Assembly (NCBI GenBank): GCA_004431415.1
Contig: QPMI01000144.1
Coordinates: forward strand, 10,325 to 74,324
Length of the DNA: 64,000 bases
Source: Cyanophora paradoxa CCMP329
Lineage: Eukaryota > Plantae > Glaucophyta
Direction of reading: 5' to 3'
This document shows, piece by piece, positions 1,603 to 54,690 of this stretch (positions within the stretch are counted from its first letter, which is position 1; every line of letters begins with the position of its first letter). The translations under genes and the position numbers were made by a program. The notes under the pieces are model-generated. The model was not told where the DNA came from. It saw only the letters and a program-made list of their open reading frames with translations, and did no database searches.

Positions 1603-1656
1603 GATTATCTCTTTTATTATACTGCAACATAAAAAATTCACCAATGATCCTTGATT

Positions 1657-2666: not shown

Positions 2667-2694
2667 CTTCTTTTATCTATAAACATATATTAAA

Positions 2695-4014: not shown

Positions 4015-4037
4015 TGAGAAATTCAGAATTTCAGATG

Positions 4038-4560: not shown

Positions 4561-4592
4561 TGAATTCAATTATTCTGTTTTATAGAACATAT

Positions 4593-5170: not shown

Positions 5171-5265
5171 ACACATATTGAAAAACGAATTTAAATCCAG
5201 AGTGAATCGAGATCGCGAAGCGATCGAGATGAACGAGGGATTTAAATTCGTTTTTCAATATGTGT
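5171..5265. repeat. Perfect 28-bp inverted repeat (hairpin) at the AT/GC boundary
   Basis: ACACATATTGAAAAACGAATTTAAATCC (5171-5198) and its exact reverse complement (5238-5265). Confidence 0.9.
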
Positions 5266-28134: not shown

Positions 28135-28710
28135 AGTAAAGGTTTGTGCAGCCTACAGCTATAGCTAGGCCTGCGAACCATGCGAGTGGCCATGGATGTC
28201 GACGTGGGGATAGAGCACTCGATCGCGAGCTGAAGATCACGATCGACATCGATGCGATCATGTTCATCGAATTCATGATCAGAAGTGCGATTCGGATTCG
28301 AATTCGGCTGCTGCGTGGCAAACTGTTAAAGTTATACTTTAGCTTTATTTTTAATTTTTACTTCTTCGAAATTACGCCACCTTCGCTTTGGACTTCTTCT
28401 TCTTGGTCGTCCTTGCAATTGAATATGAAGAGCTTGCGCATGCGACGTCGACTGCAGCTGGCGCGCTCTGCTCTAGATCTTTTGCCCCCTGGCCTGTCCA
28501 TGGGCTCAATGTCGGCTCACTCTGCTTAGAGATGGCAATTGTTAATCTCAGGATCGATATTAAGAGGAGCTCGGGTATATCATACCAGCATCGATGTCGA
28601 TGACGTGCACGTGGTAGCACCTGTACATGTGCATGTATAGCATCCGGGATCCGCGACCGTGCACGTATACGTAGTCAGCGATCATGTATGCACACGCATA
28701 GTGTTTTAAT

Positions 28711-28989
28711 TTATATGTTAGAAAAAAATGCGCCGGCGAGTCGCGCACGTCTGCAGCTGTTGACGTTCGACATGGCGAGAATTGCATCAGCATGTACTTT
28801 CCTCACTGTTTTTTGGCGTATCCTGGCAGAGAGAGCCGGACCGTTGCAACACGACTGCAGCATTTTCAAACACTCCACGTCGGACATTTGGGTCACGACA
28901 TTTGCGAGCTGTCTTTGTGTGTCTTCTGGCAGAGGCAACCTTGGACCTACTTTAAGCCTTGAAAGGTTCTTGGGCTCCCTCATTAATGT
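28711..28989 (-). CDS. Downstream exon of the host beta-helix gene interrupted by the virus
   Basis: Acceptor TTCAG ends at 28990, then TLMREPKNL..., which is phase 0 and in frame with the exon ending ...RGMK at 53708. Confidence 0.6.
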   Translation of the reverse strand, partial: TLMREPKNLSRLKVGPRLPLPEDTQRQLANVVTQMSDVECLKMLQSCCNGPALSARIRQKTVRKVHADAILAMSNVNSCRRARLAGAFFSNI

Positions 28990-29076
28990 CTGAATTTAAT
29001 GCAAACGCGCGCATTTCAGCGTTTCAAAATCAAAAAAAGATTTTGCACACGTGCACGTGTGCAAGTATACGTCTAC

Positions 29077-29359
29077 TGTTGTAAAGGGGAGGACCCCCCC
29101 CCAAACCAGACCGCCCCCAAAGTCTGGTTTTACCTTCAGGGATCCACCCCTTCTAGCGTCATCAATTAGCGATTTTTCTGAGATCAGTTAGGCGTGTTAA
29201 TTAGGCGTGATGATGGACGAGCATGGATTTGAAGATTGGAAGGCGTGAGGGCGAGTGCATTTGGATCTGAGTAGAGAATATCGAGGGAGCTCTATCTAGG
29301 CGCTATCAGGGGCGACCTCCCAAGCGGTACGGGCCCCCAGAGCGGTCTGGTGCGGCCTC
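29077..29359 (+). repeat. Left terminal inverted repeat (283 bp)
   Basis: TGTTGTAAAGGGGAGG...GGTGCGGCCTC, exact reverse complement of 53415-53697 by manual comparison. Confidence 0.96.
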
Positions 29360-33162: not shown

Positions 33163-33526
33163 CGCTAGCACCGACGCCAGGCGAGCTCAGCAGCCTCGCC
33201 GGCAGTTGACAGCAGAGGAGCGCGCAGAGCGACTACTGAAGCGTAAGCGTAAGGCGCAGCACGAGCTCTGCCTAAAATTGAAAGCAGCTGGGGTTAGAGT
33301 GGCTGTGGTGGGAATCAGACGAGAAGATGGCGGCCACTATTTCACAGAGCTCGTCCGACTTCAGAGCAGTTTACAAGATGGTCACAAATCGTGAACACGA
33401 TCATGCTGGCCAGCCCTTGACCTCTCTTGCATGGCTTAGAGGTTTCCTGCATTCTATCTAGCAGTCAGAGATTGTTGCGCTGAAATCCGAAATTAATTTC
33501 AGTCCCTCTTCTTGGAAGCGCATGCA

Positions 33527-36500
33527 ATGGCCAGCACTGCAGCACTTAAGGCCGAACTTAGAAATTTAGCGACAGAACTTTATGATCGTGGATATGTTCA
33601 CGGGACATTTCGAAACAAACTGATGCGCCTAGCGGACGCTAGCAGCGGGACCTGGGGCCAAACGATTCGCAAATATATAGCGACACTGCTGCGACTGCGG
33701 AGCACGATTCGCCCAGCACGCCGCTTATATGAAGGCCAGCTCGCAGGCCATTTTGGCGCAATTGCAGCAGCTCGCGCAAACGCGGTTCAGGCCGAGGAGG
33801 CGATACTGGAGGACGTTCCTAATATATTTCAGGATGTTGAAGAAATTCCCGTGCCACAAGATCTGGATGGGGTGCTCTCTCACAGGCACCACCGCTATCC
33901 GAATTTACTATTCGATAAGCACGTATATGCAATCGAGCCCACCTACGATCCGGAGTCCGTAAAGAATTTAACTATCGACGTTCTGGGTCAACTGGGCATT
34001 GCAGAGATGATAGGGCGATTTGTGTTAATCCGGTTCCGCTTTGACAATAATCACATGTATACGACCCAGCTGATCCAAATAAGACAGAACGGGTTGCAGA
34101 GTTTGACTGAGAGTTTAGATGAGCGGATTGCGCAGTGGATGTCAGCACAAATGTCATATCAGGAGGACGATTTCTGGACGGTAACATCGATCGAGGTGTT
34201 AATTGCAGACAACGCGGCTGGCGCCCTAGGCAATGTTCCGAAATTGCCATTTTATCATAGGACAGTCGATAAGCTATACTGCCCGATGTCCCCAGCGAAT
34301 GACTGCGTGCTCGAATGCTTTGAGTACGTTAAATTAAATCCACGCGGACTGAGCCTGAAGACAGTAATCGAAAAGCTGGCAAAGGCACCCTATGCATCTA
34401 TTCGAGAGCGGCTCGGACTGGGAAAGGGCATGATATCTCTTGATCGCAGCACAGTAGAAGCAATCTGCGGATTTTATTCGATAGATACAACTGTGACGGA
34501 GTGGGCAAACACGAAATTCAAGGAGCTTTTTCGAACCCAGTTTGATTATTCGAAGCGTGCAATTCTCTGCAACATTGATGGGCATTGCTACCTGATTAAA
34601 AAGGAGGCGACACTAGGTCTGGAGCGGTGCCCTTGCTGCGGAAAGATGTTTGATTTGGCAACGCATGTGGAGCAATGCACGTTCTGCAATAACTGCAAAC
34701 GCGCGTACGACCCCAGAAAAGATCATTCATCAGAGTGCCAGGAGATGACGCGCCGTCAAAACGTGATCGGGCGGCAAATCAAGCCCTGCAAACCGGAGAC
34801 AGAATTTACAGCGTTGGACAGCGTTGTCTGCGCGGATTTTGAAACGTTTGCTGCCAACGGCAAGACGCACGTTCCATATGCTGTCAGCTATTGCACGATT
34901 GAAAAAGGGGAGGTCTCGCCATGCGAGTTAATTTATGGTGAGCAAACGTTGGACTTGTTCATGCGCTGGCTTGAGCGCCGCAGCGAAAAGACGACGTTGG
35001 TGTTCTACAATGGGTCTGGCTTTGACTATATATTTGTCTACAAATGGCTCGTGTTAAATCGACCGAATACAGCATTAAACGTTCTGCGGTCGAACGGCAA
35101 GATCAAGAATATGTCGTGGAAAACGGCTGCAGGCGGGCCTATAAGTACGTTTGATCCGTGCCTGCACATCCAGGCTTCGCTCAAACAGGCCTGCAAGGAC
35201 TACGGCTGCACTAACGTAAAGGGAGATTTTGATCATAGCAAGATTAAAACGTGGGAGGACGTTGAGCGCTTTAAATCTGAATGGGAGCCGTACGTGGAAG
35301 ACGACGTTAAGGCAATGACAGAGCTTTACATTAAATATTCGACAGCAGTCTTCGATCTGTACGGCTTAAACGTGAACACAACGCAAACAACCACAGCTTC
35401 GGCAATGGCGTTCCAGATTCATCGGCAGACGTTGATCAATCCAATTTCGCTACCGACCTACAAGGATGATCAGGTGCTGCGCCAGGCAATATATGGTGGA
35501 CGGTGTCTCCCATTTAAACGCAAATTCGTCTCATCGGGCCCGGATGATTATTTAGTCGACCTGGATGTTGTAAGCTTGTATCCGACGGCTATGTACGAGA
35601 ATTGGTTTCCAACTGGAAAGTACAAGCATATTACGTCGCCCGATGCGCTGGACAGATTCTGCAAGATATTACAATCGAATCAGCGTTCGTTGATGTTTAT
35701 TGCGTGCGTGGACGTGACAATTCCGCAAAATCTGCTGCTCTCTCCGCTGCCACGGCACGAATCTAATCTAGGCTGGTCTAATCTCAAGCCAATTGAGCGC
35801 GGTTGGTATACGTCAGTCGATATTAATCGTGCAATTAAACTGGGATGCGAGGTGACGAAGGTGCGCGAGGTCTACCTGTTTGACGGTAAAGATCAGATGT
35901 TTAAGACCTACATGGAGCGGATGTACTGCCAGAAAGCTAGATCTCGCAAGGGAACAGCTCCGTATGCGACGTCAAAGATTTACATGAATGGCCTTTACGG
36001 TAAATATTGCCAGCGGCCTGTGATCACAACCTCGGATCTGGTCACATCATACAAGCGATTTCGAGAAATTCAGCGATCAGCGCAGATCACAGACATTTCG
36101 ATCGAATCAGACACGCGGATGTTTGTCACGTACGAGATTGAGGAGTCCAAGCGTGATAGAGCTGTCACTAAACCGTGCTTTATTGGCGCATTTATTCTGT
36201 CATATTCGCGGGAGATCATGGACAGGTTTCTGATTGAAATAGGCGCATACTGGAGCATCGATGCAATGCCGTTTTATACTGATACGGACTCTTTGATTGT
36301 CCATCGAAAATACGCTGATCTGCTGCGGGCAAAAGGTTATATGAAGCCAGCATATGATATAGCGACGGCAACAGATGCGGACATTTGCAGGCAGGAACTA
36401 GGGAAACTTGACTGTGACATTAAAGGGCGGATTGTGGAAGCGTACTTCATTGGGCCGAAGCTTTATACGTGTTCATTTGTACGTGACAGCGACGCGCAGC

Positions 36501-36852
36501 TTGATCTGCATGTACGCGCAAAGGGGATTCCGCAATCGTGGATCCAGGAGCACTGGCTACCAGACGAACCAGAGGCGAGGAAAGGGGCCCTCGACCGCAG
36601 GATCGCTCTGGATGCTTACAGGTGCATGCTCGAGGATCCCACGTACCAACCCAAATGCACAATCGAATCAAAGCTGGCCCGTGTTTATAAACCGAACGGG
36701 CGGCAACGGAGAGCGGAATCAGCTTTAGTTCCATGATCCAAATTCCGTTCGCTCGACAGCTGAACAAGTCGCAGTATACAAAGCGCAAGATAATTTCGGA
36801 CGAATACTATAGTAGCGTCCCCCATGAGTACCGCGCAGGCGAGCCGAATTAA
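33527..36852 (+). CDS. polB: Protein-primed family B DNA polymerase (pPolB); frameshift near 36700
   Basis: ExoI ADFET, ExoII FYNGSGFD, ExoIII YVEDDV, DVVSLYP, KIYMNGLYGK and YTDTDS. The shifted frame supplies the expected tail YTKRKII...SSVPHEY, ending TAA at 36852. Confidence 0.95.
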
Positions 36853-38010
36853 GCAAGCTTATTACGATCCGGAAACTGGCTTTCAGTCTGCGGCGAGGAT
36901 AGCTAAGCGGCTCAATTTACCGCTATCAAGAGTGCAGGACGTACTTTCAAAATTGACGACTGCGCAGCGTTTTGCGAAACCTGTAAAGGAAAAGCCATCG
37001 ACCAGCATAATTTACGGGGAGCCCGAAAAGTACTACGAAGTCGATCTGATTGATGTGACCCGTACGCGAGAACTAATCGAGGGATTACTTTTATTATGAA
37101 CGGTATCGATGTGACGACGCGCAAAGCGTATAGCATCCCTATGAAGACGAAATCGGAAAGCACTCTGCTAGCCAGTTTGAAGAAATTGATTGATGCACTC
37201 CCCTCGAAGCCGGACGTCATTCAGACAGATCAGGAGTTCAAAGGAACCGCAGCAACAATGCTAGCGAGTATGGGCATCAAGCATAATGCAGTGGAGGCGC
37301 ATCGCCCGCAAGCAAACGGCAAAATAGAGAGATTTAATGGTACGCTTAAGCGCATCATTGCAAAGTACATGGATGCGTACGACACGGACAGATATATCGA
37401 TAAGCTGCCTGCTTTCTTGCGCAATTATAATTCGTCAGAGCATAGGTCAATTGGTACGTCGCCGAACGCTGCAGCAGAAAATCCGAAGGAGACAATTGCA
37501 CGCAACGACTACCAGAGAGAAGCGTACGAGCAACAGCACTATTTTGCCCAAGCGGAATTTAAGGTAGGCGATCGGGTGCGAGTGCAGCTAGAGCGGCAGC
37601 GTTTCGACAAGTCTTCAAAGCCGACGTATTCAAAAGAAATCTACACGATCACGGAGATAGGTGGCTTTGGGCCGCTGCTCAAATTTACGCTTTCGGGCTA
37701 CGACAAAGCGGTGACCTACCAGCGACTATTGAAAGTAGCGGCAGATTCAGAGGAACGTCGTGCGGGCAATGCAGCACAGCGGGCACAGCAGCGCAGGAAG
37801 AAAGAGATTAATCTAATGCAAGAGAATCTAGACAAGAGTGATATAGAGAGAGCGCGCAAACTCGAGCGTTTGCAGAAGCAATTGTTGACTGCAGGTAAAG
37901 AGAAGCTGAACCCAGGAGGGGCAACACAGAGATGGTATTCGTCGTTCCAGAATAAAACTGCAGCGTACTCAGCCCCTGGCAATACGCGAACTCTCCGCCC
38001 ACGCGCGTGA
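36824..38010 (+). CDS. int: Retroviral-like (rve/DDE) integrase of Polinton type; frameshift near 37060
   Basis: YYDP N-terminus, EVDLID, QTDQEF, NGKIERFNGTLK, YNSSEHRSIGTSP and FKVGDRVRV. ORFs 36824..37099 and 37096..38010 join with a one-base correction. Confidence 0.92.
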
Positions 38011-39348: not shown

Positions 39349-40092
39349 TTATGGTAAGATTTTAAAACGCTTCTTTTTGGGATGAACAGGCGTTGAATTT
39401 TCTTTCTTAGGCTCTTCTTGTCTTAGCCATTTAGTAAAACGAAAGCTCTTATCTTCAACGGCTTTATCAACGTACCAGGCCGTATCATACTTAGTTCCAT
39501 CCAGGACTAGGCACTGATAATCATGCGCCCAAGTCTCGAACAAGGCGATGAACTTATCTTTTGGGAGATGACTGAACTCTCTATAGATCGCCTCGAGCTC
39601 GGTATGATTAGAATAACTAAAGAAAAAGCAGTAATCGCTGTTTGATCTTATAGATTGACTAAGAGCTGTTAGCTTTTGCGTCATAAGAATCGTACTTATA
39701 TTAAAATGGCGGCCCTGCGTAAAAAGTCGATTTACAGCCTTGCTGTTTCGCAGATCAACAGTTTCAGAGGCGGCAACTAGATCGTCCAATACAAGCAATA
39801 TCTGCGGTGCTTTCTCTTTGTTTTCGATCAACTTTCGCTGTGAATCAATGATTTCTGCAACTATGGCGGGTTGAAAATCGTCGTAAAGCTCTTTAGTTAT
39901 TGCAGAGTATTCACCATTGAATTTGGTGGCAGTGAAAACGACGACTCGGTTGATCTTTGGATACAGCAGTCGAAGCAGATGCTTTGTGCAATAGAACGAT
40001 TTGCCGCTATTGGACTTCGATATAAATAGGGCTTTGAAAGGGACCCTCATGTCTCCCGGCTGGAACTGTGCGAGCTCTTGAGACTGATCCAT
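39349..40092 (-). CDS. A32-like DNA packaging ATPase
   Basis: Walker A SKSNSGKS, Walker B LLVLDD, and QGRHFNISTILMTQ...IRSNSDY. Likely start MDQSQ at 40092. Confidence 0.92.
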   Translation of the reverse strand: MDQSQELAQFQPGDMRVPFKALFISKSNSGKSFYCTKHLLRLLYPKINRVVVFTATKFNGEYSAITKELYDDFQPAIVAEIIDSQRKLIENKEKAPQILLVLDDLVAASETVDLRNSKAVNRLFTQGRHFNISTILMTQKLTALSQSIRSNSDYCFFFSYSNHTELEAIYREFSHLPKDKFIALFETWAHDYQCLVLDGTKYDTAWYVDKAVEDKSFRFTKWLRQEEPKKENSTPVHPKKKRFKILP

Positions 40093-40154
40093 CAAAAAAT
40101 TAACTACCGAGATTCGCAGGCGCAGCCAAGGCAGCTTGTCTGACGACACTTCGA

Positions 40155-41543
40155 CTAGAGGTTCACCTTGCGAAGGCCCGCAGCATCAACAATTAGGACA
40201 GTGTGCAGGAGAGCGCGAACCTGGACGTAAATCTTGTTGTTTGCATCGTAAGCGGCAGGATTCATGATATTCAGGAAGCAGCTGCTGCTGTTGGTGAGAT
40301 CCACGAAACCAGTTTGAGCTGCATTTCGGATCGATTTATCCCCACTAATGCAAAATGGCAATCCACTCAGGACATATCTGTTAAGAGGCGCGTCGAGATT
40401 TGAGCACTTGAACACATCAGCAATGAGCTCAGCACCTTGCAAGAGTGGCACAGGCTCGTTAGAATAAAGTCGCTGGCCATTCAATTCGCAGGAAATAGTT
40501 ATGTCACGAGCATTGGCCTCAGTTTTAAGGACACTGTGTTTTCCATCAGTTTGGTTCATATTTGTCTGCTTGCGAATGCTAACAAAAAGGCCATAGCAGA
40601 GCCCACTGATCTGCGACAGATTAATCCGTGTAGGTGCACCAGCCCCTGCATAGGTGATCGAGTCAGCATCAACCCAGCCAACCTCAGTGGCAGGAATGGC
40701 GATTCCAGACGATTTGACTTTTTCAATAACCTGTGCAAAAGTAGCCTCATCAACGTTGATGCAGTGAGCTATAATCTTTGGATTCGATAGCTCGGGATTG
40801 GCAGGAGTGACAGTGAGGACATTGGGGGTTATATTCTGGCCAATGTTTGCAGGGGATGCAGCGGCAGCTCCTACGCTCCCAAGTCCATCATCTTTAGAGG
40901 CATCACCGTTTGCGGCATATTCTGCTACAAACCTACCACCATAGCTGGTCTCAACGAAGCCCTGGGCACGGTCACGGAACCAAACCTCCACAGACACCTC
41001 GCCCGATAGCGCACCAATTGGAAGCACTGAGCCCTCCCAGGGACAGGGGATCTTTACACTGAAAATACCTCCAGCACGATTGCTCCCCTGAGGTGGTGTT
41101 CCATGAAGCCAGCCACCGGATCGGTACTTCTTTTTAAGCTGAGCATCATCATTGAAAATCAGAGCGCTGTGAACAAGCCAGTCCTCGGGGACAATGTAGC
41201 TGTAGGAAGCATATTTGATTTCGATTCGCTTTACGAGAGCACCAACCGATCGCAAATAACCAGTGCGAACCAGGTCAGTGTCACCAGTAAATGCGGTCAG
41301 CTCTGGAAGGGTAAACTGGAGTTCGAGCCCCTGAAGGAAATTGTAGCGGGGCAGGAAATAAGTAACCCTCTTTCCGAAGCAGTCTCCATAGTCATTGCTT
41401 GGGTTGACAACAACACGCACAGGCTTTGTTTGGCTGGTTAGACCTAACATAAGCTCATTGTTCATGAAAAAGTCCTTAGCTTCCTGCGGAGTTGTCAGGA
41501 GCTCTTTGAGACCGAGTCGCTGCAAGTTTTGGGTAACATCCAT
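40155..41543 (-). CDS. Major capsid protein (probable double jelly-roll), element B
   Basis: 462 aa, most conserved gene between elements A and B. FGKRVTYFLPR...LELQFTLP and LPIGALSGEVSVEVWFR recall NCLDV-type capsid N-terminal motifs. Confidence 0.82.
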   Translation of the reverse strand: MDVTQNLQRLGLKELLTTPQEAKDFFMNNELMLGLTSQTKPVRVVVNPSNDYGDCFGKRVTYFLPRYNFLQGLELQFTLPELTAFTGDTDLVRTGYLRSVGALVKRIEIKYASYSYIVPEDWLVHSALIFNDDAQLKKKYRSGGWLHGTPPQGSNRAGGIFSVKIPCPWEGSVLPIGALSGEVSVEVWFRDRAQGFVETSYGGRFVAEYAANGDASKDDGLGSVGAAAASPANIGQNITPNVLTVTPANPELSNPKIIAHCINVDEATFAQVIEKVKSSGIAIPATEVGWVDADSITYAGAGAPTRINLSQISGLCYGLFVSIRKQTNMNQTDGKHSVLKTEANARDITISCELNGQRLYSNEPVPLLQGAELIADVFKCSNLDAPLNRYVLSGLPFCISGDKSIRNAAQTGFVDLTNSSSCFLNIMNPAAYDANNKIYVQVRALLHTVLIVDAAGLRKVNL

Positions 41544-42571: not shown

Positions 42572-43461
42572 ATGCGGCTTACCTTTGACAGCAGAGACAG
42601 AAGGCCAATCGATTCCGAGGCAAACTTTGTGCTCGAAATCAATGAACCTATAATCAATCCAGTTGCTGTTCGACTTACCCAGTGTGAGTTCGCAAACAGC
42701 CTTTACACCAGCATTAAAGATGAGTATCTTTCGATCACCTTTCCCTACATTGGGACAGAAAATCTGGCGGTTTTTGAGCCTGGCATAATTACTACTGCAA
42801 ATCTGGGCGAAACAGATATTTATAACTTTGGCCTATCGTTTAATATTAGGCTAGAAGGGATCTCAATCGCATATTTCAAATTGTTTCGAGACCCAGAGAC
42901 GTTGAAAATGTCTGCCTATTGCAGCCGTTCCTGCACACTGACCTGCCAGTTCAAAGCTCTATCGAATCTGCTTGGGCTGAACCGAAATGAGTCTCTCCAG
43001 CTGTCTCCTATCGTGCTTGAAGGGGGCAAAGACCAGCAACTGCAGCTGAGCGGTATCTCGAGGTTGCTGGCATTCCAGTTACACCTGCTCACCCTGAGTA
43101 CGGCATTGATTTCACCGGAAGAATGCGGAGTGAGCCACTTGGTTATGCTGTCGAATTTCCAAAGATAATCGACATGAACAGCGACCAGTACCTCTTCCTT
43201 GTCTGCGAAGAGCTACGGCCATTTGCTTCAAAGCTTCGCCGCGGGGCCAAAACAATGTGCAATTATGGGCTCGCTCGAATTCAAATGAGCCAGGACGTTG
43301 GCAAGTTCGTTTATATAAATCAGGAAAATGACGGCGAGTGGATCCCCATCGAAGAGCGCCTAGTGCTGACCTCTTTGCGACTGCGCATTGTCGACAGAGA
43401 TGGTGATGACGTCTCTCTGAATGGCCTGCCATGGTCTGGTGAACTGCAATTTTTAGTTTAG
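42572..43461 (+). CDS. Minor capsid/penton-like protein 2 (frameshift at the G-run near 43022)
   Basis: FDSRDR, CEFANS and LRLRIVDRDG..VSLNG. The corrected frame reads YLEVAGIPVTPAHP, matching FLYFAGVPITPNHP in element A. Confidence 0.72.
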
Positions 43462-44937
43462 GTAACGTCCCCGGAAATCAAGCCGGAACGCATTCACATT
43501 TATAAATTCGTTTGTTATAATTTGCACATAGTTATAAACCTGTGGGGTGATCAAATGCGAGTCACTATGCATTAGATCAAAGCCTGTCATAGATGGGTTT
43601 GCAGCAAGCACATTTGCTAGGACCGTATTCTCAAATAGTGACCCGTCTCGTAAATATCCTAAGTTGGTCAGAATGCTGAAATTAAATAGGACTCCGGCAG
43701 CAAAGGCTGGCCCATACATAATGATTTGATGTAGCTCAAAAGGCTTTGGAAATTCGACTCTGATCCAGGGATTAGGTAGAGTGCCACCTTGGAACCCTGT
43801 TGAGTTGGGTCGCACATGAGAAGGTGGGTGCAATTCCTCAAAGTCGTTGCTTATGATGTTTGCATCTGGAATTATAAACCAGTTTACATCAAATGGCGGC
43901 TCAACTGTTAAAGTAGACGATATGATTAGTCTCTCATCGTTCAGTAGGTCGTAGTTCGCCAATAGAAAGCTGCAGAGTGCATTTATTTTAGCATTTATTT
44001 CGATTTGTTTCAGCCATAAATCTGTTGTGGAAATCAAATAAGAAATATTCGATGGGGAGGCATCATCAAGCTTGCTCATGACTGCAGCTGGCAGCGGAAC
44101 ACTTAAACGCCAGTATCTAGTTAGATTCCTATCTGCATCAACTGGAAGCAGTTCCTGCATTTGAAAGTGCGATTCCAGCTCGCTACCTGACATTAGCATA
44201 GAAATGATTGGGCTGCCTGAGAGGGATAGGATCCAGCCCAGAGCGCCCCAGCCTGACGTCTCCGAATTCGAAAAGCCTGCAGTCAATTGCTCACTGGCTT
44301 GGACCTCACCACAGCTAATGCTCACAAGAACAATTGGATCTTCTGCATCGTAAATTTTACTGGCGTGGCTGAGTGCAGCAACTGAGGGATTATTCAAACA
44401 GGCTATCGCCCCGTCAACAAGGTTTTTGTCCCCTAGAACCTTCGGTGGAAAGAATGTAGGCGCTGCAGAAGATGCTCTCACTGCATCACGAATCAGCGTG
44501 CTTGAATATGGCCCATCCTTCGTAAAAACTACTGGCTGCATCCGAACTGTATCAAACGCTGTAATTAATACGTCTTTTGTCGATTCTGCAATTGTGTAGT
44601 CCAGGGCAACGTCTGTAAGCACCGACTCCAGAGGATTTGCATCATAGCGGCTTCCTGAGAGCAAGCTTGTCAGTGATCTTGGATTTGCAAATATTGTTGG
44701 CAGGTTCGTTTGATATAGACTCAAGATATCACCTGCAGAATATCGGTAAGCAAGAACAGAGCCTGGAGTTGATGGGATCGCCAATCCGGCCGCTATTATT
44801 GCCCCTGTTGAGGTGCCTGCAAAGAAATCAAACAGCTGTGGTATTGCTTTCCCAGTAATCGCCTCAATCCGCTGTAGAATTCGGGCTATGACTATTCCAC
44901 GAGCACCTCCACCTGATAGTGAGAGAATGACCTTCAT
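43453..44937 (-). CDS. Patatin-like phospholipase with a C-terminal extension
   Basis: SGGGARG oxyanion loop, GTSTG nucleophile, ASSAAPTFF and DGA catalytic Asp. Likely start MKVIL at 44937. Confidence 0.92.
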   Translation of the reverse strand: MKVILSLSGGGARGIVIARILQRIEAITGKAIPQLFDFFAGTSTGAIIAAGLAIPSTPGSVLAYRYSAGDILSLYQTNLPTIFANPRSLTSLLSGSRYDANPLESVLTDVALDYTIAESTKDVLITAFDTVRMQPVVFTKDGPYSSTLIRDAVRASSAAPTFFPPKVLGDKNLVDGAIACLNNPSVAALSHASKIYDAEDPIVLVSISCGEVQASEQLTAGFSNSETSGWGALGWILSLSGSPIISMLMSGSELESHFQMQELLPVDADRNLTRYWRLSVPLPAAVMSKLDDASPSNISYLISTTDLWLKQIEINAKINALCSFLLANYDLLNDERLIISSTLTVEPPFDVNWFIIPDANIISNDFEELHPPSHVRPNSTGFQGGTLPNPWIRVEFPKPFELHQIIMYGPAFAAGVLFNFSILTNLGYLRDGSLFENTVLANVLAANPSMTGFDLMHSDSHLITPQVYNYVQIITNEFINVNAFRLDFRGRYLN

Positions 44938-45052
44938 TTTTAAAAGGGGGCTTATATAAAAATGTCCTACATCTTGAAGAAGCCAGTGCCACTTCGTAAA
45001 GCTCCAGATTTTGTGGATGATCGGCATATAAATATTCGCGTATTTGGGAGTA

Positions 45053-45571
45053 CTACTGCTGGAAATTCAGCTGCAGGAATTGCTTATCAGCCTCTAAAGT
45101 GTGCACAATAGCAAATGCATCACGAGCACGAGCAGCAGCCTCGGCTGTGTGGAAATAACCTATGTGCTTCTTTTTACCATCTACATTAAAATAAGCTCGC
45201 CATTTACTACTTGATCTATCAAAGTTGACTCCAATAAATCCTGATGAATTGTTAGATTGGCGGTATCGATTCAAAATTTGCTGGCGCCTAGATGCAACTC
45301 GCAAATTTTCACGTCGATTGTCGAGGGGATTATGGTTGATGTGATCGACAGATAGGCCTTCTTCGATATTTGGAAAGAGAAACACTTGAAGTTTAATTGT
45401 TGTATACTTCCCGTTTACTTTTATGTTAGCCTGAGCATAGCCATTATTATCCAAGTGCCATTTCTTCTGAAGAACTCGTTCGGTATCTTCGTGAGACACA
45501 AGGGTATATGCACGAATGTTTCCTCGACGATCACGGAGTGGAACCGCCATTGCACCAACAGGAATGTCCAT
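45053..45571 (-). CDS. HNH-AP2 homing-endonuclease-like protein
   Basis: VDHINHNPLDNRRENLR (HNH) plus SGFIGV...KWRAY...HIGYFHTAEAAARARD (AP2). Confidence 0.9.
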   Translation of the reverse strand: MDIPVGAMAVPLRDRRGNIRAYTLVSHEDTERVLQKKWHLDNNGYAQANIKVNGKYTTIKLQVFLFPNIEEGLSVDHINHNPLDNRRENLRVASRRQQILNRYRQSNNSSGFIGVNFDRSSSKWRAYFNVDGKKKHIGYFHTAEAAARARDAFAIVHTLEADKQFLQLNFQQ

Positions 45572-45679: not shown

Positions 45680-48600
45680 ATGTCTTATCTCCTGAGAAAG
45701 CCTGTGCCTCTGCGACGGCCACCAGAATCGCCTGAAGAGGATAGGCTCATTAATATTCGCGTTTTCGGAAGCATTTTGGCTGACTACAATGCTGACAAAG
45801 ATATACACCAGACCGAGTTTAATCGCCCAGCTGCGTTAATTCTGCGCAACTCACATGTTGGCGCCCCGGACATTGCACAGAGATTTTGTCTAGGTCCAGC
45901 TGAGAACTATGTTGCTGAAATAATTGGATCCAGGGCGTTGCCGCGGCACCTGCGAATTGCCTCCTCAGGCACTGTTTCCAAGTATGATTCTGGTAGATTA
46001 ATCTTTAGGCTCCAAAATGATAGAGGGGTCCACACATCAGCTCTACGCCTAATTGATGAATCCAATGCTGTCACAAACAAGACTGCGGCTCACATTACAG
46101 GGCGAATTCTCCTTGGCGAAGATGCAGGAATATCAGTGCTAGCATCACAAATCCAGCCGTTTCCCTGGGATTTACTTTTTACAGCTGCACGAGAAGCAAA
46201 TATTTTATACGGTTTTGATGTAAATCAAATCGATACCGAGCCAGCCACCAGGTTAGATATTCCTGGATGCACCTTTGGCTCGATCCTGATGGAAGCTGAT
46301 AGGCACCTGCTCCCGGCGTTGCATGACAGCTACGATCTTGGGCTCCGCACCAGGCAGTGGCGAAATATTCACGGCACGTCGATTTACCAAGATGGAAAAA
46401 GGTCATCACTGAACCGGAGATAATAAACATTTTCAACTACTACTTCGGACCTATTGTCCCTATACCACCTATACCACCTCTTCCAGGGCTACCGAAGCCA
46501 AACCCTGAAGGGCCAGGTCGTGAGAGAGTTGCAGATGAAACAATTCCATTCGGGCAAAATATTATTTCGTGGGAGGCTGTCAGGAATCGCCCCGTGATAG
46601 AACGCTATAAGCATCCGCATGAAGAATACCTGCCGCCTGATATTGAAGTTTTCCCGCTCGAAATGTACACAGAGCCTGAAGAGCAGTTACTTCCTGATGG
46701 CTTAGATGTTCAAGAACTCCAGTACGAGCAACCTGTGATTCCACATGAGCAGCTGCTTCCAGACGGCTTTGAACCTATTCTCTTCCCTTGGAGTTCACCG
46801 TAGATTGGGAATCAATAACCAATAAACCTGGGAGTTTTCCACCAGAGGAACACAGGCATGATTGGGATGAAATCGATAATAAACCGTTGCGGTTTCCCCC
46901 AGAGGATCACAGACATGATTGGGCTGAGATCGATAATAAGCCTTTACGGTTCCCCCCAGAGGATCATAGACACGACTGGGGTGACCTTGATAATGTTCCG
47001 CTTGAATTTCCACCGGAAGATCACAGACACATTTGGAGCGAAATAGATGAGCAGCCCGAGTTCGCAAAGATTGAGCTTCCTGTCACACTAGCTGTCTCTC
47101 TCTACAAATCAATTAACACCCCTGAAAGGTTATATTTGAATGACCACTATGTCCACAGGCAGGGAATTCGTGCTAACACTGACATGTCAGGCTCTTTGTT
47201 TGTAAGGATTCCCCGTGGAATGGAGATAGTTGCTGCTGGCGGGAATATTGGTTTGCAGGACACGTTCCCAAGTATTTATGTCACAAACTACTACGCCTCT
47301 GACATCGAAATGACATCTGTTCTACCTTTTTTGCCTTCACTGCCGTTGGATCCTCTCTCCCATGCTGATTTTCATTCTGCAATCCAGATTAATGTAACAG
47401 ATGTTAGCGATTTAGATTCATCGAGACCGAAATTAGTTTTTAGCCGTGAACGCCTTTTACCCAATGCTCTGATAGGAAATCGAGATGATTATAAGAAATG
47501 CGAAATAGCATGGATAAAAACGAACTATAACGGTGGAGTTGGGGAGGGCATTTTAGAAATTAATCAGAGGGCAGCAGCAAAAAACATTCACAACGAGACT
47601 ATATCCAGAGTGGTCACAGAGGATTACCTTCAAGCCCAAAATTATGTAGATGAAACAGAGCTCGCTTTAGTTATTGCAGGTCTAGCTGTGACAGGGAATT
47701 ACCTGCCCTTGACAGGAGGAACTATTGACGGAACAGTGACTGCTGACAACTTTTTTGTTCACACTGAAAGTGATCAGACCTTCCCTGTGGTTCACCCAGG
47801 AGCTGAGTACGAGATTCCTATTGATCCTGCTATTATGCCCATAAAAATCGATCTCCCTTCCGATTATGTTGGACGGGGTGAACTGAAAATAATCTCTTTC
47901 ACAGGAGATTATAATGATCTTTTAAACAAGCCTACTGCTGAGAACCTTCACCCTGTTGCCTATTCAGGAAATTTCCTCCATTTAAATAATAGGGCACACA
48001 CCCACACAAAGGCTGAGATCACAGATTTTGCACACACTCACACGAAGTCCCAAATAACAGATTTTGCACACACCCATACCCGAGCAGATATAACTAATTT
48101 CGCTCACACCCATGTTAAATCAGAGATAACTGATCTTGGGAATGTTGCTTATGTTGGTCATACCCATACCAAGGCAGAGATTACAGACCTGGGAAATGTA
48201 TCGTACGTTGGTCATACCCATGATTGGAATACTGATATCTATAACAAACCGGCGTTGTTCTCAGGCAACTACAACGATCTGACCAATAGACCCACTCTTG
48301 ATCCCTTCACAGCCACCACTATCAGAGCCAATAATACAATGTATGTAGGATCAGGTCAGATTGTAGAACCAGCAGGGCCTATGTTTGAAGAAACATGGTT
48401 CTTCCACAATTCGCAGAATTACTTTGATAAAACCTTACTTGTTCGTGGAAATGCCTATGCAAGAAATTTCTATGCTATGAACCCCTCAAATAATGCGACC
48501 ATCAGTCGATGTATTACAGAGGCAGATCTTTCCAGTCAACTCAATGCATATTTTAATGGGAAAATTCAAGCAGGGAAGTATGTTTACACTACTCCCGTTT

Positions 48601-48854
48601 TAGATTACAATAATCTCTATGTGTTCAATCTAACTATCTATTTTACCAATGCCTTTGCTTCTCCTCCTGTTGTGACAGCAACAGTAAGGCATGAAGGACA
48701 AGATCCAAATTATCAATTAACTCCCGTCGTTTTTACTGTGAACCTGTTGAATGTTTATAGTAACTATTTTACTTGTGAACTTTTCACTGATCCATATGCA
48801 ATGATTAATTCATCCAAAACTGTTACAATTCATTACATTGCTGTCGCAATTTAA
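45680..48854 (+). CDS. Long phage-like tail-fibre protein (three ORFs joined over frameshifts near 46398 and 46787)
   Basis: Four HRH(D/I)W.(E/D)(I/L)D..P..F repeats, six HTH...I repeats (HTHTKAEITDFA type), GxYNDLxNxP twice, YLPLTGGTIDG, and a C-terminal FTNAFASPPVVTAT (H-type lectin/gp53-like). Joining the three ORFs is an inference. Confidence 0.75.
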
Positions 48855-48873: not shown

Positions 48874-49875
48874 ATGACATCTGTATTAGAAATCCCGAAT
48901 TATGAATTAGCAGCCAAATCACTGCATAGCACCTCTCATGAAGTAGTTGATTCTACACCTGGGAATATCTGCACCGAAACAGCAAGCAATACCTCCTTAA
49001 CCGAAACCAATATTTTGAGAGTCAAAGAAATACGCTGTGACCGAAATGGAGGCAAGATACGAACTACAGGTATTATTATTTCGAATAAAAATCAGGTTCA
49101 AGCAGGTCAAGTAGTCCCTGATTCAGCAGTTTATGATAACGTGGGTGGATTCACCACGGCAAAGATCGTAACTTTCGATAACACAAGCAATAACTCCGCT
49201 CTTGTGGTTAAGAGTGGTGGAGCCTATATTGGTGACGGAGCGATTGTAGTGGGGACTGTCACAGCAAATCAATTAAACGTGAGTGGTACATGCATTTTCA
49301 GTTCTTTGATGACTTTTAACTATGGCCTTTTAGGTAACATAATTTATGGGACTCTTCAGGCATTTCTGAGAGTTCAAGCACCCGAAATTGGTAGTGGAAC
49401 AGATTCCAACATGAGCTACAAACGAAATGGTAATGCAATTGTCACTCTTGAAAAAACGACGGTAGCAGAGATAGAGATAAACTCATTCACACTTTCCCCA
49501 ACTTGCTATTTGAAAAGGACTTATTGCCCAAGATTTTGTGTCACAAAACTATTACCTAATCAGGCAGCATCATCCTCATCATGGTCATCTGGCGTCCGTA
49601 TTACCTTCACAGTTCCTAATTTCGCTACTTATTATGTCAACAATGAAGGCAACTGGAATGATTCGTATATATTTACTGCACCTGTTGCAGGTGTTTACCG
49701 GGTTTTTTTCACAGCTCTCAGAATAGATACTCAGACTTCTTATGTGACTATCTTAAAGCTTTCAATAAATGGAATTGCATCCGATTACGAATTTCAATGT
49801 TCATTAACGGGACAAATGGCTATCACATACGAAACTTTACTTACTCTTAACATGGGGACAATGTTGGAGTATTAA
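48874..49875 (+). CDS. Fibre paralog 1 with a C1q-like head
   Basis: Shared N-module (PG.ICTE...KEIRCDRNGGK.RTT) and FTAPVAGVY. The true C-terminus probably extends to ~49945 past a G-run frameshift. Confidence 0.7.
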   Translation: MTSVLEIPNYELAAKSLHSTSHEVVDSTPGNICTETASNTSLTETNILRVKEIRCDRNGGKIRTTGIIISNKNQVQAGQVVPDSAVYDNVGGFTTAKIVTFDNTSNNSALVVKSGGAYIGDGAIVVGTVTANQLNVSGTCIFSSLMTFNYGLLGNIIYGTLQAFLRVQAPEIGSGTDSNMSYKRNGNAIVTLEKTTVAEIEINSFTLSPTCYLKRTYCPRFCVTKLLPNQAASSSSWSSGVRITFTVPNFATYYVNNEGNWNDSYIFTAPVAGVYRVFFTALRIDTQTSYVTILKLSINGIASDYEFQCSLTGQMAITYETLLTLNMGTMLEY

Positions 49876-49967: not shown

Positions 49968-50993
49968 ATGGCTACTCAAATAGCAGTCCCTGTTTTCTGT
50001 TACGCTGCACCGAAAATTCATCAACTCAACCACACTGTAACAGATGCAACTCCGGGTTTTATTTGCACAGAAACAACAGGAGCAGATTCATTTTCGCAGA
50101 ACTCTTTGATTCGATGCAAGGAAATCCGGTGTGATCGCAATGGGGGCAAAGTGAGAACCACAGGTCTCATCGTTTCGAACAAGAACCAAGTTCAATCAGG
50201 ACAGATCGTTTCTGATTCCGCAATCTATGATGATGTGGGAGGGTTCACCACACCCAAGATTGTTACGTTTGATAACACAAGTAATAATTCTGCTCTTGTC
50301 GTGAAAAGTGGAGGTGCTTACATCGGAGATGGTGCGAGGATTGATGGAAACCTTACAGCTGAGCAACTCACAGTAACAGGAACGACTACTTTTAATAACT
50401 TAGTAACAGCTAATGGTGGTGTGTATGTCCCTGGTGCTCAGCAGTCTATTGTGACAGCAACTACCAAAATTGTTACACCCGAAGTAGATACAGGTTCGAG
50501 CTCAAATCTTCTCTTGAAACGCAATAGTAATCTCATGGCGACACTGGAAGCCAATAGTCTCACTCTAAATACAGGTTGTTACTTCAAGTACGATTTTCAA
50601 CCTCGATTCTGCGCACAACTTGGTTACACACATGTTGCTTCAAGTGCTGCTCCTCTGATCAACTGGACAACAGTTTTTATAGACAACAGAGGTGCCTTCA
50701 ATACAGGCAATGGAAGATATACAGCTCCTGTTGCAGGACATTACAGATTAACTGTAAATTCTTCCTCAACATCTTCAACAGCTGTAAGTCTGACTTTGCA
50801 GGTAAACGATACTAACCCTGGTGGTCTGACCATCTTCACATCTGGAACTTCAACTACAATTGCAGCGAAACCTCTATATATCAACGTTATACTCAATCTT
50901 GCTGCCGGAGAATATGTCACAATTGTCACAGGAACAGCTGGTAGTTATGCAAGTCGAACAACATTTACAGCTGAACTTCTAAGTATCACATAA
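49968..50993 (+). CDS. Fibre paralog 2 with a C1q-like head
   Basis: Same N-module; FNTGNGRYTAPVAGHY...LNLAAGEYV is a C1q/TNF-like signature. Confidence 0.78.
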   Translation: MATQIAVPVFCYAAPKIHQLNHTVTDATPGFICTETTGADSFSQNSLIRCKEIRCDRNGGKVRTTGLIVSNKNQVQSGQIVSDSAIYDDVGGFTTPKIVTFDNTSNNSALVVKSGGAYIGDGARIDGNLTAEQLTVTGTTTFNNLVTANGGVYVPGAQQSIVTATTKIVTPEVDTGSSSNLLLKRNSNLMATLEANSLTLNTGCYFKYDFQPRFCAQLGYTHVASSAAPLINWTTVFIDNRGAFNTGNGRYTAPVAGHYRLTVNSSSTSSTAVSLTLQVNDTNPGGLTIFTSGTSTTIAAKPLYINVILNLAAGEYVTIVTGTAGSYASRTTFTAELLSIT

Positions 50994-53073: not shown

Positions 53074-53478
53074 ATGGATCTGCTCCGTAAATGCATGGAC
53101 ATGTTCCATCTCAACGTCACCAGCAAATTGAAATGCAGTTGCTGCGAGACAACTATCAACCTCGAAATATCTGACACTGAGGGCTCACGCACCCCTGATA
53201 CTCAGCTATCGCCTAATAACACACCCGGACTTCTAGGTCCAATTCTCCTTTTACGCGATCTGATTCACCTATACCATGGCTTGATTCTGAAAGCCGAAGA
53301 TCGTCTTGGCCACCCCAAATATCCCGAAGCCCCTGAAAAGAAAGAAGTCCTTGCTATCAAGTTTCAGAAAGGAGAAGACTCCAGTTGCCGAAAAGCAACC
53401 AGATCAAGTGGAATGAGGCCGCACCAGACCGCTCTGGGGGCCCGTACCGCTTGGGAGGTCGCCCCTGATAGCGCCTAG
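53074..53478 (+). CDS. Small hypothetical viral protein with a CSCC motif
   Basis: ATG ORF after the fibre cassette; as assembled it runs into the right TIR, so the end is doubtful. Confidence 0.4.
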   Translation: MDLLRKCMDMFHLNVTSKLKCSCCETTINLEISDTEGSRTPDTQLSPNNTPGLLGPILLLRDLIHLYHGLILKAEDRLGHPKYPEAPEKKEVLAIKFQKGEDSSCRKATRSSGMRPHQTALGARTAWEVAPDSA

Positions 53479-53697
53479 ATAGAGCTCCCTCGATATTCTC
53501 TACTCAGATCCAAATGCACTCGCCCTCACGCCTTCCAATCTTCAAATCCATGCTCGTCCATCATCACGCCTAATTAACACGCCTAACTGATCTCAGAAAA
53601 ATCGCTAATTGATGACGCTAGAAGGGGTGGATCCCTGAAGGTAAAACCAGACTTTGGGGGCGGTCTGGTTTGGGGGGGGGTCCTCCCCTTTACAACA
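53415..53697 (-). repeat. Right terminal inverted repeat (283 bp)
   Basis: Reverse complement of 29077-29359; followed by GTCTAC. Confidence 0.96.
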
Positions 53698-53707
53698 GTC
53701 TACGCAC

Positions 53708-54690
53708 CTTCATTCCGCGGAGAGCGTTGGGTCCCATTATCTTATGCGGCACAGGCGCATTCCAGATCAAGCAATCGTATGCCCTCACTAGGCAGGACTC
53801 GTCGGTATTAATGCCTACTCTGCAGTCCGATATGTGGCACCGTACGATCTGCAATCGGTGTATATAATTAAAAGAGCTGCGCAGAAATTGTTTTACAGAC
53901 AGAACTGAAAAATATTCGAATTCACCCGAGCTGAAGCGCCGCGTTGAGACACCCCGATTCCATCCTCCGCGTCTGAGATCTCGCAGGAGTCGATAACCAG
54001 CTCCCCATCATCCGCTTCGAAAAGCACGCCGGGATACTTCCGCGCGCCGCCGTGGATGCGACAATGGAAGATGCTGAGATTAGATTTGCGACAGGCGGAA
54101 AATTCGTGGAAACCGTAGCAAGCGGCTGAAGAAACAGCACAAACGCCGTTCCCTTGCAGGCTGTTGATGTCGCACCGCTCAAGCCGCCACTCGCAATTTC
54201 GCCCAAGGAGAAGAACGCGGCCGAAGATGTACAAATCACGCACGATCACGTTGTGGCGGTCGCCTATTACGGAGACTGACATGTAGACGGCTGCCGGCTG
54301 CTCGAGATCCCCCCGATAAGGCTCGAAGATGATGTTGAGTGGATGAGGGTGCTCTGGAAAGCTGATTGGGTTGGCGCACAGAGCGTCGCCAACGACGAGA
54401 AAACGGATGGTGATCTGACGCAGCTGAAGCCCTCGCGCAGATTGCTGTCGGGCCATGTATTCTCGAATCAGCTGCAGTCGAAACCGAGCTGCGTGTATGG
54501 CTTCATCGATCGTGAGTCGCTCGCATTCGTTCAAAGAATTTTCTCGTCGAAGCTCATTCTCGGTATCCCATGGCCAAAGCTCAGAATTCTCATCGGGACC
54601 CCCCACAACGAGGGTGATCTCATCAAGCGGCCACTTCCCCGACTTGAAAAGCTGCTCAATTTTCTCTGCTCAATCTCGTGATCAGCCAAA
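53708..54690 (-). CDS. Host right-handed beta-helix (pectin-lyase-like repeat) protein, exons upstream of the virus
   Basis: ...LVIDSCEISDAEDGIGVSQRGASAR, intron 53925-53849 (GT-AG), then IVRCHISDCRVGINTDESCLVRAYDCLIWN...RGMK (53848-53708). More 5' exons probably lie at ~54.8-55.6 kb. Confidence 0.65.

Follow-up and report, generated by a model that had tools for sequence, protein, structure and literature searches.

The stretch between positions 45680 and 48854 of the window (the whole 64-kb stretch of DNA analysed here) raises the question whether three overlapping open frames, separated by two frame breaks, belong to one gene and what the product of such a gene might do. A first-pass annotation had proposed a bacteriophage-type long tail fibre encoded by an integrated eukaryotic virus. 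We conclude here, with a probability of about 0.73, that the stretch is one gene of an integrated polinton-like virus and likely encodes the attachment fibre of the virion, a function that follows from the match between the histidine repeats of the protein and phage tail repeats. The features on which the argument draws are collected in Table 1.

Table 1. Features of the likely fibre gene and of the element that carries it (window positions)
Feature	Position	Strand	Remarks
Left terminal inverted repeat	29070..29359	.	290 nt, 99% complementary to 53415–53704
Protein-primed polymerase (pPolB)	33512..36736	+	Pfam DNA_pol_B_2, E 2.2e-50
rve-type integrase	37096..38010	+	Pfam rve_3, E 1.4e-8
A32/FtsK-type packaging ATPase	39349..40149	-	Pfam Pox_A32, E 2.8e-9
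Likely double-jelly-roll major capsid protein	40155..41543	-	weak Atlas lead; adjoins ATPase
Likely fibre gene	45680..48854	+	single ORF of ~1,058 codons after adding 2 homopolymer bases present in reads
N-terminal domain	45680..46395	+	~240 aa, sequence orphan
First frame break, A5 run	46396..46400	+	one more A in short-read contigs
Proline-rich linker (PIVPIPPIPPLPGLPKPNPEGPG)	46450..46527	+	
Degenerate repeat unit (WEAVRNRPVIERYKHPH)	46570..46620	+	middle frame
Second frame break, C3 run	46785..46787	+	one more C in short-read contigs
HxH block 1	46806..47030	+	four 19-aa units (W.EIDNKP..FPPE.HRH; HRHDW.EIDNKPLRFPPED)
Middle domain	47073..47699	+	sequence orphan
YLPLTGG motif	47700..47720	+	
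GDYNDLLNKP motif	47904..47933	+	aligns with the GDYNDLxNxP motifs that recur in P0115
HxH block 2	47997..48227	+	six HTH motifs, HTHTKAEITDFA type, spacings 12, 12, 12, 18, 18 aa
GNYNDLTNRP motif	48264..48293	+	
C-terminal tip	48300..48851	+	184 aa, sequence orphan
Right terminal inverted repeat	53415..53704	.	

Reading frames and frame breaks

The borders of the gene are exact, with a start ATG at 45680 and a stop codon at 48852–48854. Between them lie three open frames with short overlaps (45680–46421, 46327–46801 and 46773–48852), and each step from one frame to the next amounts to one missing base; the last frame, taken from 46788 to 48854, comprises 688 aa. In the sequence of the window, the frameshifts that had been placed at 46398 and 46787 do exist and fall within the A5 and the C3 run, respectively. 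The read evidence on these two sites consists of short-read contigs of a multi-copy family from four runs (X1, X2, X3 and X10). At a likeness of at least 90%, the A-run site is covered by X1 and X2, with no cover in X3 and X10, and the entire covering depth carries an extra A behind 46395 (672.1 of 672.1 in X1 and 21.7 of 21.7 in X2). An extra C behind 46784 accounts for the whole depth over this site in X2, X3 and X10 and for 694.2 of 1363.8 in X1, about half of the depth in this run being without the insertion. At a likeness of at least 98%, contigs bridging the two sites come from X1 only; a 90-nt contig has the extra A and a 62-nt contig the extra C, each with 0 other differences, and no bridging contig has the A5 or C3 version of the window at either site. 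Furthermore, an exact 211-nt contig common to all four runs has 10 loose letters that fit only with CCCC. Both frame breaks are absent from otherwise exact short-read contigs, and with the two bases added the gene is one ORF.

An early ATG is missing from the middle segment and likewise from the first 130 residues of the last segment, which contain HxH block 1. A degenerate repeat unit lies in the middle frame, and the repeat array therefore begins before the second break. Among 40 listed differences between copies, 39 are in-gene substitutions (138 further differences lie outside the list), and 27 of these 39 (69%) are synonymous in the assigned frames, compared with an expected 23%. Of the same listed substitutions, 30 affect the third codon position (binomial p 9e-10), and the synonymous ones are spread as 7/8 over the N-terminal, 4/6 over the middle and 16/25 over the last segment. 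The three frames are one gene, as follows from the one-base steps, the lack of usable ATGs, the array crossing the second break, the exact contigs with extra bases and the synonymous divergence.

Three open frames with short overlaps, and shift sites that are both homopolymers, would also be expected of three independent genes (45680–46423, 46357–46803 and 46788–48854) or of one gene with two programmed −1 ribosomal frameshifts. However, the second and third frames are without a usable ATG, the array runs across the second break, and the contigs of the DNA runs carry the extra bases, so that no recoding is needed; we regard both arrangements as highly improbable. The contigs agree with a single gene, as in the first-pass annotation, rather than with three separate genes.

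It could be argued instead that the assembled strain has lost the two bases and that the gene is intact in sister copies only, which would make this a decaying pseudogene. As both breaks stand in the window, the copy of this strain may indeed be damaged. The family is multi-copy (117, 101 and 165 contigs per band at 90–99% likeness in X1), so an exact short contig may derive from a sister copy, and at a likeness of at least 90% half of the X1 depth at 46784 is without the extra C. However, the version of the window does not recur among the closest bridging contigs, both breaks are one-base deficits in homopolymers, which would be the usual long-read consensus error, the inverted repeats are 99% alike and all other genes of the element are open. 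We therefore consider decay unlikely and suggest that the apparent frameshifts should not be taken as a sign of it.

The carrier element

The gene is located inside the inverted repeats of an element spanning 29070–53704, at a distance of 4.1 kb from the likely capsid gene. Polinton-like viruses were taken to be elements of 15–40 kb with inverted repeats, a pPolB or another replicase, an integrase, a packaging ATPase and a double-jelly-roll capsid protein. Based on its size of 24.6 kb, its inverted repeats, its pPolB, rve-type integrase and A32-type ATPase genes and its likely capsid gene, we identify the element as a polinton-like virus integrated in GC-rich eukaryotic DNA. The capsid component of this assignment is likely. 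In the Atlas, the candidate lies at 0.98 to clusters of which 12–30% of members bear Capsid_N or Capsid_NCLDV, with a recognition of 1827 that is below the mark of 2300 and hence weak; it has no Pfam match and no PDB sequence match, and neither in IMG/VR nor in the JGI metagenomes was a close relative found. Nothing meaningful came from PDB sequence searches with the polymerase and with the neighbouring 318-aa ORF. No maturation protease was recognized in a Pfam search of the element, and no target-site duplication is evident at its ends.

The host flanks have a GC content of 65–78%. ORFs of a flanking ABC transporter each cover about 30–40 of the 137 Pfam profile positions, and this partial cover suggests that the flanking host genes contain introns. 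A bacterial host is ruled out by the split of the ABC-transporter domain across ORFs and by the contigs of the runs, which add up to about 50–120 Mb, and a giant-virus origin of the island is ruled out by its size, its inverted repeats and its pPolB/rve core; no giant-virus genes are present in the 64-kb window. As regards transcription, none of the 24 runs listed is an RNA run that contains the stretch, and in the 4 entries guessed to be RNA the sampled words are almost entirely missing.

Histidine repeats and their relatives

The last frame contains 10 HxH motifs, compared with a mean of 1.4 and a maximum of 7 in 2000 shuffles of the same residues. This confirms the two repeat blocks that had been noticed at the outset, four motifs having a 19-aa period and six a spacing of 12–18 aa. 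The YLPLTGG and GNYNDLTNRP motifs are also present as described, the latter being one of two YNDLxN(K/R)P motifs in the gene. A six-frame scan of the 64-kb window with three motif patterns gave 13 matches, all of them on the + strand within 46570–48293. Tandem Repeats Finder detects 2.6 copies of a 57-nt unit, with 85% matches, and 3.3 copies of a 36-nt unit, with 76%.

The Pfam family PTR (PF12789, 'Phage tail repeat like'), with a cut-off of 27 bits, matches the 688-aa frame with 28.2 bits and the block 2 segment alone (residues 395–539) with 36.4 bits, and block 2 is covered by up to 115 of 120 listed hits. Thirteen PHROG families match, 8 of which are labelled tail; block 1 matches phrog_5231 (1.1e-14) and phrog_9574, a 'tail protein' (4.7e-11), and is 45–50% identical to minor tail proteins of actinobacteriophages (E down to 8e-18). 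There are 229 matching phage records, the features in the 25 rows listed being tail, minor tail or hypothetical proteins, and in the example record opened the 'minor tail protein' gene is situated two genes ahead of the endolysin gene. The best metagenome match, P0004, a protein with BppU_N and PTR domains, contains units of either type and shows 54% identity over 85 aa; scans of IMG/VR and the JGI metagenomes yielded no close relative of the fibre. The PDB sequence matches of block 1 are tail fibres, namely 9d93 ('Tail collar fibers, gp4', 1.3e-5) and 6cl5 (0.039). Judged by these searches, the repeat blocks are homologous to the repeats of phage tail proteins, as represented by Pfam PTR and the minor tail proteins of actinophages.

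The idea that an integrated eukaryotic virus encodes a fibre-like protein of phage type is thus borne out by a PTR score above cut-off, by the PHROG tail families and by the phage records. No sequence likeness to T4 gp12 or gp37 was found: neither gives a PDB sequence match at E ≤ 1, the Collar domain (PF07484, accession as in PMC12724248) gives no match at E ≤ 0.1, and the relatives are siphophage minor tail and BppU-type baseplate proteins. The C-terminal chaperone Peptidase_S74 (PF13884) likewise gave no match at E ≤ 0.1.

The homology is limited to the repeats, about a quarter of the protein, and the identity as a fibre therefore rests on the repeats together with the viral setting. By the same token, the proposed capture from a tailed phage would apply at most to the repeat module, the rest of the protein being without phage homology. 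Nothing points to a recent capture from a phage, since gene and element are similar in GC content (0.438 and 0.466, respectively). With a bearing on the capture claim, PTR fibres already occur in several polinton-like viruses according to the excerpted text of PMC12220804.

Domains outside the repeats

The N-terminal domain has no Pfam match and no relative among proteins of 434–2000 aa. In the middle domain, residues 101–280 are covered by 0–5 of 120 listed hits, and a search with residues 96–420 gave 5 weak hits. Residues 561–688 of the last frame have almost no relatives, and a search with the tip among 1.84 billion representatives returned 1 weak match (3.2e-5), which is uninformative with about 50 tip residues aligned. 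A lectin-like tip had been proposed for this end of the protein. A resemblance to H_lectin (PF09458) is indeed found at the extreme C-terminus, where residues 616–685 (48633–48842) align to profile positions 3–66 of 67, at scores of 14.7 bits for the whole frame and 17.5 bits for the tip alone that lie below the Pfam cut-off of 24. The first match of the tip in the Atlas is an H_lectin cluster (0.88), a lead only, and the tip is possibly H-lectin-like. The single-sequence AlphaFold2 models of the 688-aa frame and of the tip (residues 540–688) reached mean pLDDT values of 30.2 and 35.0, respectively, and are unusable. As the N-terminal, middle and tip domains are without relatives, they are candidates for new folds, putatively for capsid anchoring and receptor binding.

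Proposed function and diversification

In the arrangement that we propose, the fibre would be a rod built of three chains, with a buried metal ion at each HxH triplet, as is the case for the R-pyocin fibre and T4 gp37. The rod would be attached to a capsid vertex by the orphan N-terminal domain, with the proline-rich linker as a hinge. Its orphan tip, which is possibly H-lectin-like, would recognize a sugar on the surface of either the host cell or a helper giant virus. Alternatively, the target of the fibre might not be the host cell at all but the helper giant virus or the factory of the latter, by analogy with Sputnik-type virophages, which are reported to ride on the surface of a giant virus. 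Elements with a pPolB, an rve integrase and an A32 ATPase include mavirus-type virophages (excerpts of PMC8547959), and entry of Sputnik on the fibres of its helper is set against independent entry in the consulted portion of 10.1101/2022.07.28.501842. However, the window holds no giant-virus gene, and the view published for the fibres of polinton-like viruses is that of independent attachment to the cell (PMC12220804, in the portion available); we judge a fibre that binds the giant virus and not the host cell to be rather improbable.

The length and specificity of the fibre may change when repeat units are gained or lost and when the many genomic copies exchange their tips. It had been suggested that repeat number could tune fibre length; variation in repeat number fits one contig with an additional 57-nt unit, seen in one of the four runs. 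More tentatively, and with the odds rather against it, the fibre genes of this family might diversify like phage tail fibres, with whole 19-aa HxH units gained and lost, tips and shaft blocks swapped and the frame kept by purifying selection, so that the genome would form a reservoir of receptor specificities displayed on a metal-stapled trimeric shaft. To our knowledge, no structure of a eukaryotic virus has so far revealed such a shaft. With its many diverged copies, a single cultured organism offers a workable system for following changes in fibre length and receptor specificity.

Comparison with known systems

HxH motifs are common to the protein described here and to the R-type pyocin fibre, T4 gp37 and gp12. 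In the trimers of the pyocin fibre (6CL5), of the gp37 tip (2XGF) and of gp12, a set of six histidines holds a single buried Fe or Zn ion, and in the R1 pyocin fibre (6CL5) the Fe-binding HxH lies in the shaft (PMC6116203, as excerpted). The unit KPLRFPPEDHRH aligns to KPATFPPSGHNH of 6cl5 in a weak match (E 0.039), whereas metal binding in the present protein would follow from its HxH motifs by analogy. The tripartite tail of the virophage DSLV2 (PMC12724248) likewise equips a small eukaryotic virus with phage-fibre-like receptor-binding proteins; it consists of three proteins of 196–247 aa with a gp37-tip fold and Collar, modelled as a heterotrimer, in contrast to the one PTR protein of about 1,058 aa found here. 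The words 'fiber', 'fibre' and 'lectin' do not occur in the main text of the Cafeteria EMALE paper.

Siphophage PTR minor tail and BppU-type baseplate proteins (Streptomyces, Arthrobacter and Microbacterium phages; P0004) have in common with our protein the 19-aa W.EI.NKP..F.PE.H.H and the 12-aa HTHTKA.ITDFA units, at 45–54% identity over about 85 aa. The repeats alone are shared, amounting to at most 22% of the query in the phage records, and unlike the baseplate proteins the protein described here is without BppU_N and belongs to a eukaryotic virus.

The closest setting is found in the polinton-like viruses themselves. The Gezel-14T virus has a fibre-like protein, Ltf, which was found in virions (excerpted text of 10.1101/2022.07.28.501842), and a fibre protein 'TFP' belongs to a Tetraselmis PLV (10.1101/2025.10.09.676808). 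PTR-bearing fibres are described for several polinton-like viruses by Bulzu et al. (2025) in section 13 of PMC12220804; in the consulted part of this source, they are likewise long, modular and encoded near capsid genes of small integrating DNA viruses with protist-type hosts, a Cyanophora polinton-like virus has a PTR plus C-terminal H_lectin architecture, and the C-terminal Peptidase_S74 chaperone is frequent but not universal. Compared with the fibres described there, the present protein is without collagen, laminin_G_3 and Peptidase_S74, its H_lectin match is below threshold, it has an orphan N-terminal domain and two HxH blocks around an orphan domain of about 300 aa, and its carrier element combines pPolB with an rve integrase. 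Phage-like fibres with PTR, and even with PTR and H-lectin, are thus already published for polinton-like viruses, as far as this text extends, and the gene is a further example. As the general phenomenon is in print the gain is incremental, and it consists of a well-bounded PTR/HxH case in the likely fibre of an integrated polinton-like virus with pPolB and rve integrase.

Results

The fibre gene extends exactly as the first-pass annotation had placed it, from its ATG to its stop codon through three reading frames, and the two blocks of HxH repeats and the YLPLTGG and GNYNDLTNRP motifs described from it are indeed present. Ten HxH motifs occur in the last frame, compared with 1.4 on average and never more than 7 in residue shuffles (n=2000), and a six-frame scan of the window with three motif patterns gave 13 matches, every one within the fibre gene. 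In a DNA comparison within block 1, units 2 and 3 agree at 50 of 57 bases and the remaining pairs at 25–38, which suggests that one unit was duplicated fairly recently.

Features of the fibre gene, its carrier element and neighbouring loci (window numbering)
Feature	Position	Strand	Remarks
ABC-transporter copies	17139–18426; 21362–22662	+	about 4.2 kb apart, 73–89% identity
Left inverted repeat	29070–29359		290 nt, 99% alike to right one
Patatin-like phospholipase	43453–45027	-	8.1e-26; between capsid module and fibre gene
HNH_3 + AP2 endonuclease, homing type	45053–45571	-	divergently transcribed; 108 nt separate it from the start of the fibre gene
Fibre gene, frame 1	45680–46421	+	opened by ATG at 45680
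Fibre gene, frame 2	46327–46801	+	open
First frame break	46396–46400	+	A5 run
Degenerate repeat unit	46570–46620	+	WEAVRNRPVIERYKHPH; middle frame
Second frame break	46785–46787	+	C3 run
Fibre gene, frame 3 (last)	46773–48854	+	688 aa; stop 48852–48854
Block 1	46806–47030	+	4 HxH motifs in 19-aa units, W.EIDNKP..FPPE.HRH
YLPLTGG	47700	+	
GDYNDLLNKP	47904	+	
Block 2	47997–48227	+	6 HxH motifs, HTHTKAEITDFA-type units, spacings 12, 12, 12, 18, 18 aa
GNYNDLTNRP	48264	+	
Paralogous genes	48874–49875; 49968–50993	+	directly downstream of fibre gene, 49% identical
Right inverted repeat	53415–53704		290 nt
ORF with right-handed beta-helix match	53893–54606	-	outside right inverted repeat
Palindrome	55697–55787		45-nt

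Each change of frame corresponds to one missing base. Sampled words of the stretch were present at 65–76% in 20 runs labelled as one organism (17 named studies and three rows naming none), and the contigs of four runs were compared with the window at likenesses of at least 90% and at least 98%. At the lower threshold, an extra A behind 46395 was carried by all covering depth in runs X1 and X2, X3 and X10 having no cover there, and an extra C behind 46784 by all covering depth in X2, X3 and X10 and by 694.2 of 1363.8 in X1. At the higher threshold, these insertions were the sole differences from the window in a 90-nt and a 62-nt contig of X1, and no contig bridged either break with the window's version. 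In addition, the first ten letters of an exact 211-nt contig, found in all four runs (X1, X2, X10 and X4), fit only with four Cs. The frameshifts are therefore not borne out as real, since near-exact short-read contigs carry the extra bases. The contigs with the extra bases might instead derive from a sister copy, as the fibre gene family is multi-copy: X1 contigs fall into all three likeness bands (117 at at least 99%, 101 at 95–99% and 165 at 90–95%), with summed depths of hundreds to thousands.

That the three frames form one gene rather than three is upheld by these reads and by three further observations. An early ATG is lacking in the middle frame and the first ATG of the last frame lies only at about residue 133, so that block 1 would be missing entirely if frames 2 and 3 were separate genes. 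A degenerate unit already lies in the middle frame, and the repeat array thus extends across the second break. Finally, among the 40 best-supported listed substitutions (138 more exist), 39 lie inside the fibre gene; 27 of the 39 are synonymous in the assigned frames, against 23% expected, and 30 occupy third codon positions (p 9e-10). The synonymous bias is found in every segment (7/8, 4/6 and 16/25), and thus the copies have evolved apart as a single coding sequence of about 1,058 codons.

Some contigs fit unit-number changes and mosaic tips among copies, but the evidence is thin. The repeat-number variation that had been suggested is matched by a gain of 57 nt, exactly one 19-aa unit, in a single X3 contig that goes back 51 bases with six letters between (one of four runs). 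Each of the four runs has one contig joining 48034 back to 47020, and three of the four have one contig each that leaves out 226 nt of the tip (between 48595 and 48822, intervening letters undefined).

The repeats have phage-type relatives. Block 2 matches Pfam PTR, 'Phage tail repeat like', with 28.2 and 36.4 bits (cut-off 27), and block 1 matches phrog_5231 (1.1e-14) and phrog_9574, 'tail protein' (4.7e-11), in PHROG. By tblastn, 229 phage records match the fibre (Streptomyces 170, Arthrobacter 42, Moraxella 7, Microbacterium 4, Gordonia 3 and three others 1 each); among the rows listed, query coverage is at most 22%, with identity up to 45–50% over about 85 aa and E values down to 8e-18. 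Under the best 25 of the 229 lie tail, minor tail or hypothetical proteins, and in Streptomyces phage Provolone the match falls in a 'minor tail protein' gene, with an endolysin gene two genes further on. The best metagenome match, P0004, has BppU_N and PTR domains and both unit types (54% identity over 85 aa). Sequence matches in the PDB are to fibres only, namely 9d93, 'Tail collar fibers, gp4' (1.3e-5), and weakly the R1 pyocin fibre 6cl5 (0.039), whose KPATFPPSGHNH aligns opposite KPLRFPPEDHRH of the fibre gene. [quoted passage not shown] The proposed phage-type fibre is thus supported by the PTR and tail-protein matches; its specifically T4-like character is not, T4 gp37 and gp12 giving no match among solved structures. 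A Pfam search found neither Collar nor Peptidase_S74 domains in the fibre, and recent capture from a tailed phage was not borne out.

Outside the repeats, relatives are scarce. Among 120 listed matches, residues 360–520 of the last frame are covered by up to 115 and residues 1–100 by about 20, residues 101–280 by only 0–5 and residues 561–688 by 0–2. Residues 96–420 as query gave five weak matches, the tip (residues 505–688) one weak match among 1.84 billion representatives, and the N-terminal domain no relative among longer proteins. The suggestion of a lectin-like tip survives as a lead only: H_lectin scores 17.5 bits, below its cut-off of 24, although nearly the whole profile is spanned at the extreme C-terminus, and the first match of the tip in the Atlas, which compares clusters by protein language-model features, is an H_lectin cluster (0.88). 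Single-sequence AlphaFold2 gave two unusable models (pLDDT 30.2 and 35.0).

Discussion

The fibre gene sits inside a 24.6-kb island with a GC content of 0.466, in DNA that reaches 65–78% GC outside it. Beyond the island, each ABC-transporter ORF covers only 30–40 of the 137 positions of Pfam ABC_tran, which suggests interruption by introns. Together with the GC-rich flanks and contigs totalling about 50–120 Mb per run, this identifies the host as a eukaryote. The duplicated transporter sequence represents either a tandem pair or a single gene with its two nucleotide-binding halves.

Among the products of the island are a protein-primed polymerase (E 2.2e-50), an rve integrase (E 1.4e-8), an A32-type ATPase (E 2.8e-9) and, adjoining the latter, a 462-aa protein that resembles capsid clusters in its language-model features, a match rated weak; the island also carries phospholipase and endonuclease genes. 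The carrier is a polinton-like virus or Polinton. A giant virus was rejected, given a 24.6-kb element with inverted repeats, this polymerase and this integrase. A profile search recognised no maturation protease in the island, and no target-site duplication was recognised at its ends.

Downstream of the fibre gene, the two paralogues have a highly conserved N-terminal 150 aa and divergent C-terminal heads; both match phrog_15750, and the second matches Pfam C1q (9.8e-6). The two may be trimeric spikes or fibres of another type, whose heads can be exchanged. Outside both inverted repeats (28000–29069 and 53705–55600) GC is still intermediate (0.45–0.56), and the insertion site of the island may be what is left of an older element. 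A second low-GC stretch (1–6000, GC 0.41–0.45) may be another mobile element; its ORFs 229–1644, 2004–2666 and 2695–3252 have no Pfam matches, short direct and inverted repeats lie at 4078–4860, and no repeat of at least 60 nt is common to this stretch and the 24.6-kb element.

We propose that three chains would assemble into a homotrimeric vertex fibre, in which the N-terminal domain may anchor the protein to the capsid, a proline-rich stretch (46450–46527) may act as a hinge, both HxH blocks would make up stiff parts of the shaft, held together by metal ions on its axis, and the tip would recognise a glycan on a surface; a helper giant virus could also be the ligand. The phospholipase, whose C-terminal extension of roughly 300 aa has no family match, may be a virion entry lipase, by analogy with the putative lipase in Gezel-14T particles (10.1101/2022.07.28.501842).

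Phage-like fibres of polinton-like viruses are a kind already known from published fibres of these viruses and of virophages. The fibres in which Bulzu et al. report PTR (PF12789) include those of an Organic Lake virophage and of the polinton-like viruses of Trichomonas vaginalis and Rhodomonas lacustris (PMC12220804). Gezel-14T Ltf, a virion component, has repeats like T4 gp36 (10.1101/2022.07.28.501842), Tetraselmis polinton-like viruses have a 'tail fiber protein' in common (10.1101/2025.10.09.676808), and virophage DSLV2 has tip proteins like gp37 (PMC12724248). The present fibre joins this kind with an architecture of its own, with two HxH blocks, three domains without relatives and a pPolB/rve carrier.
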